This document shows, piece after piece, positions 2-7,515 of a stretch of DNA of 7,515 nt. The stretch is taken from the IMG/VR virus record IMGVR_UViG_2526164690_000027, positions 1 through 7,515 of that record; one strand, 5' to 3'. The position numbers and the translations under genes were made by a program. Origin of the DNA: a virus. Its lineage: Duplodnaviria; Heunggongvirae; Uroviricota; Caudoviricetes. The notes beneath the pieces were generated by a model. It did no database searches. It saw only the letters and a list, made by a program, of their open reading frames with translations, and was not told the DNA's origin. Position 1 is the stretch's first letter, and each line of letters opens with the position of its first letter.

Positions 2-1591
2 TACGATGCTCCGGATCCGCGCATTAAACAGCTGGCGCGCCGCAGTACAGTGACGCCGGGCGGGGCTGCCTGCAGATATAACGATATTATTCCGGCTGAC
101 CACTGTCTGCATGATGTGCAGGATATGAGTACGCTGAATCATCCGAAGGCAGACCTGAGCAAAGGGCAGTACGGCTGTGTCGGCCAGGGCTTACATATTG
201 CCAAAAAACTGCTTCCGTATATCCCGAATAACGCGGGGATCCTGCTGGTACCATGCTGTCGTGGTGGTTCTGCATTCACCCAGGGCGCTGAGGGGACATT
301 CAGTGCGGACACGGGGGCTAGCCATGATTCGGCACGCTGGGGTGTGGGTAAACCGTTATATCAGGACCTGATTGCGCGCACCAAAGCTGCATTACAGAAG
401 AACCCGAAAAATGTGTTGCTGGCGGTGTGCTGGATGCAGGGAGAGTTTGACATGAGCGCCGCCACCCACGCACAGCAACCTGCGCTGTTTACAGCCATGC
501 TGACACAGTTTCGTGCTGACCTCTCCGTGTTTAACGCGCAGTGCCATGGTGGCAGTGCTGCAGATGTGCCGTGGATTTGTGGTGACACGACGTATTACTG
601 GAAAAATACATACGCTACCCAGTACGACACCGTGTACGGCGGGTATAAAAACAGGGAGAGTGAGGGCGTTTATTTTGTGCCCTTCATGACAGACGGTAAC
701 GGTGTCAATACCGCCACTAACGCGCCGGCAGAAGATCCGGATATTCCGGCATCAGGATATTACGGTGCGGCATCGAGAACGAATGGAAACCAGGTATCAT
801 CAAACCGCCCGACACATTTCAGTTCATGGGCGCGCAGGAGCATTATTCCGGATCGTCTGGCAACCGCTATTCTGAACGCAGCCGGGCGCACCTCAGCCTT
901 CATCAGTGGTAAGGCACCGGAAATCAAACCCTCGCCCGGCGGCAACACGCCATCGGGTCCGTCTGCAGATACGTCCGTTCGCACAATCTCCCTGCTGCCG
1001 GCAGCCGGAGAGGCTGCTGCGCAGGGCTGGAGCATTAAGGATGGCGGAATTCAGTTGTCGGGTGGTGTATTTAAGATCGCCAAGCAGAGCAATAAAACCT
1101 GGTCCCTGACGCATCCGGTGGATGACGCAATTACCCTGCTGACACAGGGCGGCAGACTGACCTGTAAGTTCCGCCTGTCAGGCGCACTGACCAACAATCA
1201 GTTCGGGCTGGGGATTTATCTGTATACGGATGCTCCCGTTCCTGATGGTGTGGCGATGACGGGTACCGGTAATCCGTTCCTGATGTCGTACTTCACTCAG
1301 ACCACTGACGGCAGAGTGAATCTGATGCATCACAGGAAAGCCGGAAACACGAAGCTGGGGGAGTTCGGCGATTACGGTAACGACTGGCAGACGCTGGAGC
1401 TGGTGTTCACCGCCGGCAGTGCCACGGTTACTCCGAAACTGAATGGAGTGGCTGGCCCGGCATTCCAGGTTATAAAAGACAGTCTGACACTGGGACTGAA
1501 TGCGCTGACGCTGACGGATGTTACAAAAAATGCAGCGTATGGCGTTGAGATAGAAAGTCTGGTGCTGGAGATAAATGCACCGGCAGCATAA
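2..1591 (+). CDS. 5'-truncated phage moron esterase, SASA/SGNH-like (NanS-p-like putative sialate O-acetylesterase) with a C-terminal beta-rich domain
   Basis: Frame is open from position 2 to TAA at 1589-1591 with no in-window upstream stop; the GTG at 50 is only the first in-window start, so the gene continues upstream. Translation contains ...VPCCRGGSAF... and ...CWMQGEFD..., resembling the GG and W-x-QGE-x-D blocks of sialate O-acetylesterase (SASA) domains. A Gly/Thr/Asn-rich C-terminal domain follows. Position directly upstream of the holin matches where NanS-p-type esterases sit in EHEC prophages. Functional call is inference from memory. Confidence 0.55.
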   Translation, partial: YDAPDPRIKQLARRSTVTPGGAACRYNDIIPADHCLHDVQDMSTLNHPKADLSKGQYGCVGQGLHIAKKLLPYIPNNAGILLVPCCRGGSAFTQGAEGTFSADTGASHDSARWGVGKPLYQDLIARTKAALQKNPKNVLLAVCWMQGEFDMSAATHAQQPALFTAMLTQFRADLSVFNAQCHGGSAADVPWICGDTTYYWKNTYATQYDTVYGGYKNRESEGVYFVPFMTDGNGVNTATNAPAEDPDIPASGYYGAASRTNGNQVSSNRPTHFSSWARRSIIPDRLATAILNAAGRTSAFISGKAPEIKPSPGGNTPSGPSADTSVRTISLLPAAGEAAAQGWSIKDGGIQLSGGVFKIAKQSNKTWSLTHPVDDAITLLTQGGRLTCKFRLSGALTNNQFGLGIYLYTDAPVPDGVAMTGTGNPFLMSYFTQTTDGRVNLMHHRKAGNTKLGEFGDYGNDWQTLELVFTAGSATVTPKLNGVAGPAFQVIKDSLTLGLNALTLTDVTKNAAYGVEIESLVLEINAPAA

Positions 1592-1782: not shown

Positions 1783-1956
1783 CAGAAGGATAGTTGGATT
1801 TCACATGATACTTATGCCTGGCGGTATATTTTCTGACAGACAGTGACGGGTGTTGTCAAGATATTGTGTCATTTATAACCTGAATCAGGGGAGGCCGGAA
1901 TGTTATCTGGCATTTTTAGCAGAGCCTGAATGCCATAATCACGGCTCCCGGCGTTG

Positions 1957-1995
1957 GCCGTCAGTGGGTGACACTGGCGGCTTTTTTGTTTTTCT
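1957..1995 (+). terminator. Rho-independent terminator immediately upstream of the holin (tR'-like position)
   Basis: GC-rich 10-bp stem: GCCGTCAGTG at 1957-1966 pairs with CACTGGCGGC at 1972-1981 (one G.U pair), 5-nt loop GGTGA, followed by TTTTTTGTTTTTCTTT at 1982-1997. Holin start codon is ~40 bp downstream. Confidence 0.6.
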
Positions 1996-2037: not shown

Positions 2038-2244
2038 ATGGAAAAAATCACAACAGGTGTGTCATACACCACGTCAGCGGTGGGGACGGGATACTGGTTA
2101 CTGCAGCTGCTGGACAAAGTCTCTCCGTCCCAGTGGGTGGCAATAGGTGTGCTGGGAAGTCTGCTGTTTGGCCTGCTGACGTATCTGACTAACCTGTATT
2201 TCAAAATCAGAGAGGACCGTCGTAAGGTGGCGCGGGGAGAGTAG
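2038..2244 (+). CDS. S: Class II holin / pinholin (phage 21 S21-like)
   Basis: 68-aa ORF with two predicted TM segments: weakly hydrophobic TMD1 [15 protein letters not shown] and TMD2 [18 protein letters not shown]. Charged C-terminus [13 protein letters not shown]. Strong resemblance to the S21 pinholin from memory. Located after a terminator and paired with a SAR endolysin. Confidence 0.85.
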
Positions 2245-3465: not shown

Positions 3466-3559
3466 GCAGAATATTTTGCTGAAAAATAAGGCATGGCCAC
3501 GCGGGCGGATAACATGAAATCCTGCGAACTGGCAAAATGTAAGTGAATAAAAGTAAAAA

Positions 3560-3594
3560 CCCCGTTTGTTGGCAGCAAGCGGGGTTTTGTTTTT
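3560..3594 (+). terminator. Rho-independent terminator downstream of the endolysin
   Basis: CCCCGTTTG at 3560-3568 pairs with CAAGCGGGG at 3576-3584 (9 bp, one G.U pair), 7-nt loop, followed by TTTTGTTTTT at 3585-3594. An A-tract (3555-3559) on the 5' side makes it potentially bidirectional. Confidence 0.55.
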
Positions 3595-3659
3595 ATGGCA
3601 GTAAGCTATGGGAGGCTGCCTTGATTGATTTTAGCAAACTGATTAGGGAGTTGCGACTC

Positions 3660-3755
3660 ATGATTAGTCAATTACCAAACTGGAAATTTTTGCTGGTCTG
3701 GAGCATCCCTTTTTTATGGGTAGTATCCCAGTTAATTGTGGCAATTAAGGGGTAG
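3660..3755 (+). CDS. Small hydrophobic protein, 31 aa (MISQLPNWKFLLVWSIPFLWVVSQLIVAIKG), single predicted TM helix
   Basis: ATG at 3660 is preceded by SD AGGGAG (3645-3650) with a 9-nt spacer. Stop TAG at 3753-3755 lies 2 nt before the next ORF start. This is the 3' part of track ORF 3543..3755, whose 5' part overlaps the terminator hairpin. Confidence 0.35.
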   Translation: MISQLPNWKFLLVWSIPFLWVVSQLIVAIKG

Positions 3756-3757
3756 CT

Positions 3758-3889
3758 ATGTCAGACAAACTCATAACGCCGGCAAAGGTCCTGTGTGTGA
3801 TTGTCGGTATTTCATTTTCACTAATGCTGGTTGCTCTTTTTCTGTCCCTCGCCTGGGTGATGTTGTCTTCGTCGGGGCTGCTGGGGTGA
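3758..3889 (+). CDS. Small membrane protein, 43 aa (MSDKLITPAKVLCVIVGISFSLMLVALFLSLAWVMLSSSGLLG)
   Basis: ATG at 3758 is preceded by SD AAGGGG (3747-3752) with a 5-nt spacer. Below the ORF-track length cut-off. One long hydrophobic segment. The N-terminal TM segment resembles the Rz TM segment at both protein (KVLCVIV vs RVLCVVIIV) and nucleotide level. Confidence 0.4.
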   Translation: MSDKLITPAKVLCVIVGISFSLMLVALFLSLAWVMLSSSGLLG

Positions 3890-3891
3890 CA

Positions 3892-4008
3892 GTGACTGAT
3901 GACATCAGCAGAGCGCTGGCTTTTGCTATTAAGTGGGTGGCTGTTGGTATTGCTGTGTCTCCGATGCTGTATGGGCTGGCAAAACTGGTCATTGCGCTGA
4001 AATCGTGA
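3892..4008 (+). CDS. Small hydrophobic protein, ~38-40 aa (..TDDISRALAFAIKWVAVGIAVSPMLYGLAKLVIALKS); start ambiguous (GTG 3886 overlapping the upstream stop as GTGA, or GTG 3892)
   Basis: Frame matches the 3' part of track ORF 3736..4008. GGGG at 3882-3885 can serve as SD for GTG 3892. Paralogous to the next small ORF (shared motif RA[LM]AFAI[KR]xVA). Confidence 0.3.
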   Translation: MTDDISRALAFAIKWVAVGIAVSPMLYGLAKLVIALKS

Positions 4009-4019
4009 ACTTTAAAAAG

Positions 4020-4106
4020 ATGAGTGCTGAACTTATTCGGGCAATGGCATTTGCCATTCGTATTGTGGCCATTGCTGTTCTGGTCTGGGCAATCCGTTGG
4101 TGGTGA
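4020..4106 (+). CDS. Small hydrophobic protein, 28 aa ([28 protein letters not shown]), paralog of the preceding small ORF
   Basis: ATG at 4020; stop TGA at 4104-4106 lies 1 nt before the Rz ATG at 4108. No clear SD. About 9/20 identical plus conservative residues against ORF 3892-4008 over the core. Confidence 0.3.
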
Positions 4107-4107
4107 T

Positions 4108-4602
4108 ATGAACCGTGTTCTGTGTGTGGTGATTATTGTCCTGCTGGTAGCCTGTGGTGTGCTTAGTCTGGGGCTGAATCATTACCGCGATAACGCCATC
4201 ACCTACAAAGCGCAGCGCGATAAAAAAGCCAGAGAGCTGGAGCTGGCAAACGCAACTATTACTGATATGCAGGTGCGCCAGCGCGATGTTGCTGCGCTCG
4301 ATGCAAAATACTCGAGGGAATTAGCCGATGCGAGAGCTGAAAATGAAACTCTGCGCGCTGATGTTGCCGCTGGTCGTAAGCGCCTGCGGATCAACGCCAC
4401 CTGCCCCGGTACCGTGCGTGAAGCCACCGGCACCTCCGGCGTGGATAATGCAACCGGCCCCCGACTGGCAGACACCGCTGAACGGGATTATTTCATCCTC
4501 AGAGAACGGTTGATGACAATGCAGAAGCAGGTGGAAGGGGCACAGGACTATATCCGCACTCAGTGTACTAAGCAGGCTTTTTATTATCCGGAGGATGTAT
4601 GA
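4108..4602 (+). CDS. Rz: Rz i-spanin (inner-membrane spanin subunit)
   Basis: Translation from ATG 4108 ([39 protein letters not shown]...[23 protein letters not shown]...) aligns closely with lambda Rz from memory: N-terminal TMD, coiled-coil periplasmic domain. The in-frame upstream ATG at 4024 would add a non-homologous 28-aa extension that overlaps the small ORF, so it is rejected. Confidence 0.9.
4328..4513 (+). CDS. Rz1: Rz1 o-spanin (outer-membrane lipoprotein spanin subunit), embedded in +1 frame within Rz
   Basis: 61-aa [64 protein letters not shown]. Lipobox VSAC, proline-rich mature part. Close match to lambda Rz1 from memory. SD GAGGGA at 4314-4319. Confidence 0.85.
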
Positions 4603-5191: not shown

Positions 5192-5419
5192 TTATATGAA
5201 CAGCCATCGCAGAGCATACTGTGTATCATTCTTTTTTATAGTCAACTGACGGGCATATTTTATGTCTGCTGCCAGCTCCCGGCGGCAAGATTCAATGACC
5301 CACGCAGAAAAATTTTCTGAACCTTTCTGGTCAAGAGCGATGTTAATTTGTTCAATCATCTGGTTTGGAAATCGGATGTTGCGGGTTGTTGTTCTGCGGG
5401 GCCGGTTTTTCGATGACAT
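5192..5419 (-). CDS. Small DNA-binding-like protein, YlcI-like (DUF3950 / ribbon-helix-helix-like), 75 aa, divergent from the HNH gene
   Basis: Minus-strand ORF with SD-like AGAGGA ~7 nt upstream of the ATG (plus 5417-5419). N-terminal basic stretch then RNIRFPNQMIEQINIALDQKG...FSAWVIESCRREL, recalled as the YlcI-type small protein found next to terminase genes in E. coli cryptic prophages. Family assignment is from memory. Confidence 0.55.
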   Translation of the reverse strand: MSSKNRPRRTTTRNIRFPNQMIEQINIALDQKGSENFSAWVIESCRRELAADIKYARQLTIKKNDTQYALRWLFI

Positions 5420-6116: not shown

Positions 6117-6680
6117 GTGCTGACAACGCAAAAACGAAAATTTGCGCTGGCGCTCATGTCCGGGAAAAACAAAACAGCGTCAGCCATTGCCGCTGGTTAT
6201 TCGGCGAAGACCGCCAGGGTTAAAGGCTCGCAGCTGGCAAAAGATCCGGAGGTGCTTGCGTTTATAGCCCGTAAACAATGCGAGACGGTGGAGGTGGATG
6301 AGGTTCCTGTTTACCGGCAGAAAAAATCAGAGCAGGAGGATAAACCCCGTCGCCGTGAGGCGGCTGCAATACCACAGCCGGACGAAAACAATCCGGAGAT
6401 GCCACCGTCCGCGGTGATGTCTCCTGGTATTGAATATATGGAGGATGGTCTTCCCGATCCGGTGAAAGCGATGGGGCGTCTTCTGGTGGAGAACATTAAT
6501 ACCGACCCCAGGCTGGCGCTGGATGCGGCTTATAAGCTGGCGCAGTTCACGCACCATAAAAAAGGGGATGCCGGTAAAAAATCGGCAAAAGGTGACGCGG
6601 CGAAAAAAGCGGCTAACCGTTTTGCGGTGCCACCACCACCCCGCCTGGTGGTGAATAATGATAATGAGGGCAACGAATGA
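6117..6680 (+). CDS. terS: Terminase small subunit (Terminase_2-like, N-terminal HTH DNA-binding domain)
   Basis: GTG start at 6117 with SD GGAGG at 6107-6111. N-terminus ...KRKFALALMSGKNKTASAIAAGYSAKTARVKGSQLAKDPEV... matches the conserved small-terminase DNA-binding motif (AGYS..TA...GS.L) from memory. Stop overlaps the terL start (ATGA at 6677-6680). Confidence 0.85.
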   Translation: MLTTQKRKFALALMSGKNKTASAIAAGYSAKTARVKGSQLAKDPEVLAFIARKQCETVEVDEVPVYRQKKSEQEDKPRRREAAAIPQPDENNPEMPPSAVMSPGIEYMEDGLPDPVKAMGRLLVENINTDPRLALDAAYKLAQFTHHKKGDAGKKSAKGDAAKKAANRFAVPPPPRLVVNNDNEGNE

Positions 6681-7515
6681 TACCTGTGTGGAGCACGGCC
6701 TGCCCGGACTGGGCAGAGCGCCTGAAAAAGGGGCTGTCGATTATTCCGGCTCCGATTTATCCGGAGCAGGCTGCACATGCACTGGCGATTTTTAAACAAC
6801 TGCGGATTGTGGATGCACCGGGTAGCCCGACATTCGGGGAGTCCTGTGCACCGTGGGTGTTTGACCTGGTGGCGGCCCTGTTTGGCTCCTACGATGCGCA
6901 GACCGGTGTTCGCCATATCAAGGAAGTGTTTATCCTTATCCCCAAGAAAAACAGTAAGTCCACGCTGGCCGCGGGGATCATGATGACGGCGCTGTTACTG
7001 AACTGGCGGCAGGCGGCGGGCTACACCATTCTGGCCCCGACCGTGGAGGTGGCGGCTAACGCCTTCAACCCTGCCAGGGATATGGTACGACGGGACGATG
7101 ATCTGGATGACCTCTGTCAGGTGCAGACACATATCCGGACCATCACCCATCGGGTGACGGACACCACCCTGAAGGTGGTGGCAGCCGATCCGAATACGGT
7201 GTCCGGTATCAAGTCCGTGGGGACACTGATTGATGAACTGTGGCTGTTTGGCAAGCAGTACAAGGCGGAAGACATGCTACGTGAAGCCATCGGCGGGCTT
7301 GCCTCCCGTCCGGAAGGGTTTGTGGTGTATACGACCACCCAGTCGAATGAAACCGCCCGCCGGGGTGTTCAGACAGAAACTGCAGTATGCCCGGGATGTC
7401 CGTGACGGCAAAATTCATGATCCGCACTTTCTGCCGGTGATTTTTGAGCATCCTCCTGAAATGGTGGAAAGCGGGGCTCATCTGCTGATGGAAACCTCGC
7501 CATGGTTAACCCGAA
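6677..7515 (+). pseudogene. terL: Terminase large subunit, N-terminal ATPase domain; reading frame broken by an apparent +1 frameshift near 7349-7353; continues in the 0-frame to the window end (3'-partial)
   Basis: Frame-2 ORF 6677-7405 (242 aa) contains a deviant Walker A ...ILIPKKNSKST... but is far too short for a TerL. Its last 17 codons (TARRGVQTETAVCPGCP) look non-protein-like. The 0-frame is open from 7230 to the window end and reads protein-like from 7353 (PPAGVFRQKLQYARDVRDGKIHDPHFLPVIFEHPPEMVESGAHLLMETSPWLT). Junction is at the GAAA tract 7349-7352. Could be a real mutation or a sequencing error. Confidence 0.55.

Follow-up and report, generated by a model that had tools for sequence, protein, structure and literature searches.

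A probable NanS-p sialate O-acetylesterase gene ahead of the lysis genes of a lambdoid prophage

The virus record IMGVR_UViG_2526164690_000027 (Caudoviricetes) opens within a large gene that precedes a phage lysis cassette. Here, we analyzed the first 7,515 nucleotides of this record, referred to below as the window, and conclude from sequence comparisons that bases 2-1591 (plus strand) very probably encode residues 88-616 of NanS-p, a prophage-borne paralogue of the Escherichia coli sialate O-acetylesterase NanS. Two solved structures and thousands of annotated genomes match the sequence, which settled the identity. An initial annotation, made from the letters of the DNA, had already pointed to a NanS-p-like sialate O-acetylesterase in the slot next to the lysis genes; its observation was confirmed, and its core reading is supported by domains, structures, and the gene order in relatives. 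Both the NanS-p family and its slot ahead of the phage lysis genes have been published before, and nothing in this assignment is biologically new. Recognizing NanS-p in this record is useful for annotation, given the inconsistent names in PHROGs and RefSeq. It also touches two questions, namely, whether the less-studied 616-amino-acid class to which this allele belongs behaves like the class of phages 933W and phi24B and whether the protein is cargo or a virion component.

Frame +2 is open from base 2 to a stop codon at 1589-1591, comprising 529 codons that run off the 5' edge of the window. The large open reading frame (ORF) noticed initially is real, but its length of 513 amino acids is not that of the full frame; it arose from the ORF listing, in which the start was set at the first in-frame GTG (base 50). 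Other, spurious ORFs of the window do not exceed 128 amino acids, and a frame of 529 codons is thus not attributable to chance. In the closest relatives, the coding sequence (CDS) has 1851 nucleotides and specifies 616 amino acids. The window begins at its codon 88 and holds codons 88-616 plus the stop, the 3' 86% of the gene, with 87 codons upstream of the window. Relative to these loci, the window copy has no frameshifts, no stops, and no indels within the nanS-p CDS, and the window protein differs from annotated alleles by only two to seven amino acids. Whole-window identity to the 616-amino-acid loci is 99.6%, near-identical loci are annotated as "SASA family carbohydrate esterase" (616 amino acids), and the partial CDS (2..1591, plus strand) matches phrog_143 with an E value of 3e-296. 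An Rfam scan of the window returned no known RNA families, and ARAGORN returned no tRNAs in it. As to nomenclature, PHROGs v4 lists phrog_143 as "unknown function," near-identical copies in RefSeq appear either under the SASA name or as "DUF6645 domain-containing protein," and the gene was left unannotated in several GenBank phage records.

The SASA/SGNH-esterase-like blocks reported in the initial annotation were borne out by Pfam and by structure. SASA (PF03629) matched the window with an E value of 2.5e-11 and 44 bits, above the cutoff of 24.8, over profile positions 56-157 only; the match is partial because the N-terminal part of the domain lies outside the window. DUF6645 (PF20350) was also detected (E value, 3.6e-18), passing the curated cutoff. 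A full-length 616-amino-acid relative contains DUF1737 at residues 3-49, SASA at residues 66-262, and DUF6645 at residues 467-577. A joint search for SASA and DUF1737 had been proposed at the outset, and half of it could be answered in the window: SASA was matched there, whereas DUF1737 (PF08410) falls off its edge and was found in the 616-amino-acid relatives (E value, 1.2e-15). In all relatives with upstream sequence, among them all of the approximately 55 IMG/VR contexts, the window start is immediately preceded by an intact segment coding for the N terminus. The full-length relative matched PDB entry 3PT5, E. coli NanS/YjhS, over residues 60-379 (E value, 2.5e-120), and the window part is 55.9% identical to this structure over 286 aligned residues. 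Residues 421-613 matched the chain named "NanS-p" of PDB entry 6YP6 (E value, 2.6e-29), with 35.8% identity over 190 residues of the C-terminal domain; the 6YP6 segment in this alignment occurs letter for letter in phi24B vb_24B_21, from residue 435 on. On the plus strand of the window, the NanS-like SASA/SGNH catalytic domain (residues 88-379, in-window part) corresponds to 2..877, a Pro/Ser/Gly-rich interdomain linker (residues 380-421) to 878..1003, and the C-terminal lectin-like jelly-roll domain to 1005..1579. The carbohydrate-binding beta domain that had been proposed for the C-terminal ~200 amino acids is right as a fold assignment.

SGNH block II, CCRGGSAF with the oxyanion-hole Gly (residues 172-179; 254..277), and the SASA-specific block III, WMQGEFD with the (H)QGE motif (residues 231-237; 431..451; role of the motif described in PMC9487903), are both identical to those of E. 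coli NanS (EcNanS). The last SGNH block, RPTHFSS (806..826), contains the catalytic His359 (codon 815-817), aligned to the EcNanS His, and blocks II, III, and the His block are all intact in the window. According to the 3PT5 alignment, the GQSN nucleophile motif occupies residues 71-74, which places its Ser73 14 codons upstream of the window; GQSN is present in the translated full-length relatives L001-L003. The Asp of block V (DxxH) is absent, with Arg356 at the position three residues before His in the R-P-T-H of the window and RSSH as the EcNanS equivalent. EcNanS and SASA enzymes lack the block V Asp (PMC9487903), so that the missing Asp represents the family norm and is not evidence against function. 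In SASA enzymes, the oxyanion hole is built from the Gln beside the Ser and the (H)QGE block (PMC9487903). The initial annotation had taken the absence of catalytic Ser, His, and Asp residues as grounds for rejecting an esterase. His359 is in place, Ser73 lies beyond the edge, and the Asp is lacking; since NanS enzymes use a Ser-His dyad without Asp, this expectation was mis-specified. Catalytic-residue numbering and enzymology were drawn from reviews and the 3PT5 alignment. The codon for residue 195 (base 325) carries a private substitution, Q195H; chromosomal NanS also has His at this position, and the variant was absent from all fetched loci, IMG/VR, and JGI metagenomes.

The position directly upstream of a holin gene, claimed initially, was confirmed. 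The first lysis gene (2038..2244, plus strand) encodes a class II (P21 S-type) holin (PF04971; E value, 1.3e-32; RefSeq "class II holin family protein") and starts 446 nucleotides 3' of the nanS-p stop. Between the two genes, an intrinsic-terminator-like hairpin (1956-1982) with a T-run (together 1956..1992, plus strand) ends 46 nucleotides before the holin start codon. Its 11-bp stem contains 7 GC pairs and is followed by TTTTTTGTTTTT, and its folding energy is -23.3 kcal/mol (z = -2.84 versus shuffles). The hairpin is copied exactly in the related loci L001 and L003-L005, and the divergent spacers of phi24B and PPyecE contain a hairpin and T-run at the same position, with a compensatory G-C to A-T change. 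Folding and conservation together strongly predict that this hairpin is the terminator between nanS-p and the holin gene, as the initial annotation had it. The same spacer contains an inverted repeat at 1601-1634 (AGCCAGCG ... CGCTGGCT) right after the nanS-p stop, with an A-run ahead of it. Read on the minus strand, this repeat is a terminator-like hairpin with a T-run; no convergent minus-strand gene for it to terminate is evident in the spacer.

Among complete E. coli genomes, the best matches were prophages of O103, O111, and other non-O157 STEC (E. coli that produces Shiga toxin) chromosomes, with which the window is collinear and 99.6% identical. Its first 1700 bases are 98.6-99.1% identical to Stx1a-converting phages including H-19B, and some Stx1a-phage records name the gene "yjhS, 9-O-acetyl-N-acetylneuraminic acid deacetylase." Common to every relative is the order Q ... 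nanS-p, holin, endolysin, Rz, HNH, TerS, TerL. In the window, nanS-p occupies the Q-to-holin interval, and the prophage is of a lambdoid, HK97-type, long-tailed kind that is typical of non-O157 STEC. DNA of the window-type nanS-p (at least 80% coverage) was found in 1391 genomes, with a median of 2 such places in a genome and a maximum of 11, and stx1AB was contiguous with the window allele class in 40 of 5426 complete E. coli genomes.

The window nanS-p is, by sequence comparison, a clean mosaic of two alleles. Bases 1-146 agree at every position with ~52 IMG/VR prophage contigs that form one group. From base 107 to base 7515, the window follows the O103/O111 prophage type apart from scattered differences, which places the crossover between 107 and 146; 18 sites discriminate between the allele types in the first 106 bases. 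Such a mosaic fits gene conversion among the many paralogous nanS-p copies of STEC genomes. A window-specific patch of 59 nucleotides occurred in 61 IMG/VR contigs, none of them collinear with the whole window; the patch had no match in GTDB species genomes, and its combination with the His195 variant had none in JGI metagenomes. The exact HNH protein of the window is encoded at 10 places, all of which share the same ~33 differences from the window.

The upstream context was deduced from the two parental allele types and not read from the window's own source. In the O103/O111 type, nanS-p is preceded, in this order, by Q (PF06530), a CPBP protease gene, a TrmB pseudogene, a gene for an AraC-type helix-turn-helix (HTH) protein, and tRNA-Ile/Arg/Arg. 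The IMG/VR group showed two arrangements: TerB/DUF3927 with or without tRNAs or a methylase gene, and Rha/Ant, YbcO, RusA, Q (PF03589), a 252-amino-acid ORF, and nanS-p. Neither type showed stx within 8 kb upstream: it was absent from the 13 genomic places inspected, and stx1 was found in none of the ~55 IMG/VR contigs with usable upstream sequence. Q was present in every relative with enough sequence and tRNA-Ile/Arg/Arg in some only. The initial recommendation to look upstream for stx, tRNA genes, and Q was thus partly rewarded, with Q in the relatives and tRNA genes in some of them but no stx in either parental type. Upstream of the window, Q, and often tRNA genes, would be expected, and toxin genes are unlikely. 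The 252-amino-acid ORF between Q and nanS-p in one context class (L024 8321-9079) had no Pfam match. At L003 8001-8250, the tRNA-Ile of RefSeq was read by ARAGORN as tRNA-Met(cat); this call is the usual signature of a lysidine-modified Ile tRNA. In one related locus (L070 15791-19110), IS66 truncates the prophage and NleG effector genes come next, and in another (L077 4280-6129), nanS-p is split by a frameshift.

The closest known counterparts of the window allele are the NanS-p proteins of Stx1a phages and stx-negative STEC prophages (Stx1_14040 "yjhS" BCI49065.1, PPyecE_EH1910, H-19B, and YYZ-2008; WP_000874393.1 and WP_073927697.1), which are 98.5-99.2% identical over 529 residues. They share its length class (616 amino acids), the three-domain architecture, and the slot before a P21-type holin; the window allele differs by being mosaic and by the private Q195H, and stx1AB lies upstream in some carriers only. 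At the protein level, ~31 phage records were at least 95% identical (mostly Stx1a phages, PPyecE, and YYZ-2008), whereas 307 records with less than 60% identity to the window protein constitute the 933W/phi24B class. NanS-p of the Stx2a phages 933W (Z1466) and phi24B (vb_24B_21/gp84, 645 amino acids) belongs to the same family and has the domain order DUF1737-SASA-jelly roll and the same slot between stx/Q and S. The window class is 29 residues shorter than vb_24B_21. Identity to vb_24B_21 is 61% in DUF1737, with the first ~32 residues nearly identical, 71% in the catalytic domain, 34% in the linker, and 36% in the C-terminal domain, and 55% over the window part overall. The SGNH block variants are the same except for block IV, which reads RPTH in the window versus RSSH/RASH in the 933W/phi24B class; among Stx2a phages, the RPTH variant was seen only in prophage 86 (Pascal et al., PMC10462455). 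The aromatics Y510/Y515/Y540/F611 proposed for the phi24B sugar site correspond to F488/Y493/F518/L584 in the window class. The carrier phages differ as well: the one studied here is a long-tailed HK97-type phage, phi24B is a podovirus, and their capsid proteins are unrelated in sequence. Chromosomal NanS (YjhS, 3PT5) has a homologous catalytic domain with identical block II/III motifs and a Ser-His dyad without block V Asp. It is, in contrast, a single-domain protein of ~326 amino acids belonging to the nan regulon, is not phage-borne, and has neither DUF1737 nor a linker nor a lectin-like domain at the C terminus. We considered whether the window allele might be Z3342 (CP-933V) of EDL933, whose product is abundant in supernatants, and rejected this because Sakai/O157-type Stx1 phages in the phage collection carry the other class, at ~52% identity.

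Several points weigh against the assignment as a functional NanS-p. The 5' end lies off the window, and a defect there may exist in the window's own copy. The allele class is just 55% identical (36% in the C-terminal domain) to the biochemically and structurally studied 933W/phi24B class, and one of the four proposed sugar-binding aromatics, F611, is replaced by Leu. For the C-terminal domain, a lectin-like jelly roll, carbohydrate binding is experimentally unproven for any NanS-p (PMC8065619). Finally, the prophage may be defective, as its terL is out of frame for 141 nucleotides.

NanS-p proteins are prophage-borne esterases acting on 5-N-acetyl-9-O-acetylneuraminic acid (Neu5,9Ac2) and were first characterized for z1466 of 933W (PMC8065619). 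Strain EDL933 has 7-10 copies and O104:H4 has 5, and each allele that was tested showed activity on Neu5,9Ac2 (PMC8065619). NanS-p of EDL933 and O104:H4 supported growth on Neu5,9Ac2 and de-O-acetylation of mucin glycans (PMC8065619; PMC8319020). An earlier study described both the architecture of three domains and the location of the gene between stx/Q and S (PMC10462455). NanS-p lets enterohemorrhagic E. coli (EHEC)/STEC use O-acetylated sialic acids of gut mucus, and its gene ranks among the best-conserved accessory genes in Stx prophages and their lambdoid relatives.

From this literature and the near-identical relatives, we infer that the missing 5' end would encode DUF1737 and GQSN, with Ser73 as the nucleophile. 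A Ser73-His359 dyad is predicted, with Gln72 and the QGE block forming a SASA-type oxyanion hole. By analogy to the studied alleles, the enzyme would strip Neu5,9Ac2, whether still on mucin glycans or freed from them, of 9-O-acetyl (and 7/8-O-acetyl) groups, and the product, N-acetylneuraminic acid (Neu5Ac), would be catabolizable by E. coli. Glycan targeting of the enzyme is the probable role of the C-terminal domain. Transcription of the gene would occur mainly within the Q-antiterminated late transcript, which would pass the 1956-1982 hairpin and continue into the lysis genes; immediately downstream of Q, L003 has several promoter-like sites. This proposal agrees with the 1-2.4 log increase in nanS-p expression caused by mitomycin C (PMC10462455) and with z1466 belonging to the late genes that norfloxacin induces most strongly (PMC8065619). 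The protein would be released to the medium when the adjoining lysis cassette lyses the cell, which is in line with the finding of Z1466 in supernatants of EHEC (PMC12962677).

It is possible, if on balance unlikely, that the protein is primarily a virion component whose DUF1737 hexamers dock on hexons, by analogy to phi24B gp84, and that the displayed or released esterase and lectin aid mucus adhesion or movement or modify O-acetylated host surface glycans. Such a role is not exclusive of the enzymatic one. According to a 2026 preprint on phi24B, gp84, a member of the NanS-p family, was among the strongest virion protein bands, and its residues 2-57 were modeled as a hexamer on the central hexons of the T=9 capsid, with proteolytic processing of the protein (10.64898/2026.04.10.717836). 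Late transcription of nanS-p among lysis and morphogenesis genes points in the same direction, as do a GC content equal to that of structural and lysis genes, the lack of a predicted promoter of its own, and the near identity of the first ~32 DUF1737 residues between the window class and phi24B. A possible role in the phage life cycle has also been raised in a review (PMC8065619). However, decoration of this kind was reported only for phi24B, a podovirus with a T=9 capsid, while the prophage studied here has a long tail and a major capsid protein that is a fusion of S78 protease and HK97 capsid (645 amino acids). This protein gave no significant blastp or tblastn match in phi24B, although a shared HK97 fold is possible. 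Moreover, a 3-residue indel sets the window class apart from phi24B in the loop with the Tyr42 "tooth," the SSP motifs put forward as phi24B processing sites are not conserved, with only PSP in the linker, and DUF1737 itself lies off the window.

It is tempting to speculate, on the analogy with phi24B, that the DUF1737-esterase is capsid-displayed in this long-tailed HK97-type lineage also, that the divergent lectin domain confers a different glycan specificity, and that the paralogues act as phage-specific virion adhesins or enzymes; we consider this extension improbable. If true, DUF1737 would dock onto capsids unrelated in sequence, and the many nanS-p paralogues per STEC genome would represent distinct targets and not redundant metabolic cargo.

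The initial annotation had called the gene a moron. A classical moron is a cargo gene that is transcribed autonomously, between a promoter and a terminator of its own, and that serves the lysogen by being expressed while the prophage is repressed. We regard this label as doubtful. The strong terminator 3' of the gene is present and would protect the lysis genes against read-through in the lysogen. The upstream slot is a hot spot where cargo varies (stx1, TerB/DUF3927, methylase, CPBP/HTH genes, and tRNAs), basal uninduced expression was measurable in most strains (PMC10462455), and multiple copies were additive for growth on Neu5,9Ac2 (PMC8065619). On the other hand, a consensus scan, which was weak and was made on a relative, revealed no plus-strand sigma-70-like promoter in the 490 nucleotides between the tRNAs and the start codon (L003 8250-8740), and the same 490 nucleotides contain three terminator-like hairpins. 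The GC content of nanS-p, 55.5%, is that of its phage neighbors (53-58% for holin, endolysin, Rz, HNH, terS, and terL), expression is strongly induction dependent (PMC8065619, PMC10462455), and the phi24B homolog was reported as a structural protein (10.64898/2026.04.10.717836). The label moron is unsupported by the tests run.

A substrate other than sialic acid, such as O-acetylated O-antigen of lipopolysaccharide (LPS), capsule, or plant acetylxylan, appears very unlikely. The SASA family does include acetylxylan esterases (PMC9487903), de-O-acetylation of O-antigen was raised as a possibility (PMC8065619), and the C-terminal domain is just 36% identical to that of phi24B, with one proposed binding aromatic lost. 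The catalytic domain argues otherwise: its identity to EcNanS, an enzyme with 9-O-acetyl-Neu5Ac as the best substrate (PMC9487903), is 56%, and the block II/III motifs are the same. All tested NanS-p of EDL933 and O104:H4 were active on Neu5,9Ac2 (PMC8065619).

There is equally little to favor the window copy being a remnant in a defective prophage that yields no functional enzyme: its 5' end is unseen, terL carries +1 and -1 indels leading to stops, and related loci include a frameshifted portal gene, insertion sequence (IS) insertions, and one split nanS-p, yet 529 of 529 in-window codons are intact, the catalytic motifs are kept with 2-7 substitutions versus intact alleles, and NanS-p genes in cryptic prophages of EDL933 are still functional (PMC8065619). 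Compared with all close relatives, terL (6677-7515) has an extra A at 7350 and lacks an A at 7491; the ORF ends at 7405 after 242 amino acids, versus 553 amino acids in the full-length TerL of relatives. The window has eight indels versus relatives (1740, 5834, 5866, 5898, 5912, 5949, 7350, and 7491), all eight in homopolymer runs. Such a pattern points to errors of sequencing or assembly more than to genuine decay.

Downstream of the holin gene, the lysis cassette continues with an endolysin gene (phage lysozyme; 2932..3465, plus strand; PF00959, E value 7.6e-24) and the Rz spanin gene (4108..4602, plus strand; PF03245, E value 1.3e-49; RefSeq "lysis protein" coordinates) with an embedded Rz1-like ORF at 4328-4513. 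Rz is followed by HNH, TerS, and the start of TerL. Holin and endolysin genes are split by a low-GC (38.7%) segment of 687 nucleotides (2245-2931), which contains a minus-strand ORF of 104 amino acids (2500-2814) matching phrog_1853 (E value, 3.5e-47) and the RefSeq hypothetical protein WP_000138558.1. By composition and orientation, this segment looks more like a cargo module than nanS-p does. Between endolysin and Rz, very small hydrophobic ORFs (43-90 amino acids) are clustered at 3543-4106, for example, 3758-3889, which corresponds to phrog_4906; three of these small ORFs are RefSeq hypothetical proteins of 28-51 amino acids in relatives. The opposite strand carries a YlcI/YnfO (DUF3950) gene at 5192-5419. 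The HNH endonuclease gene (PF01844; 5461-5826) is located directly ahead of terS/terL (6117-7515), an arrangement known for HNH-assisted cos cleavage in HK97-like phages.

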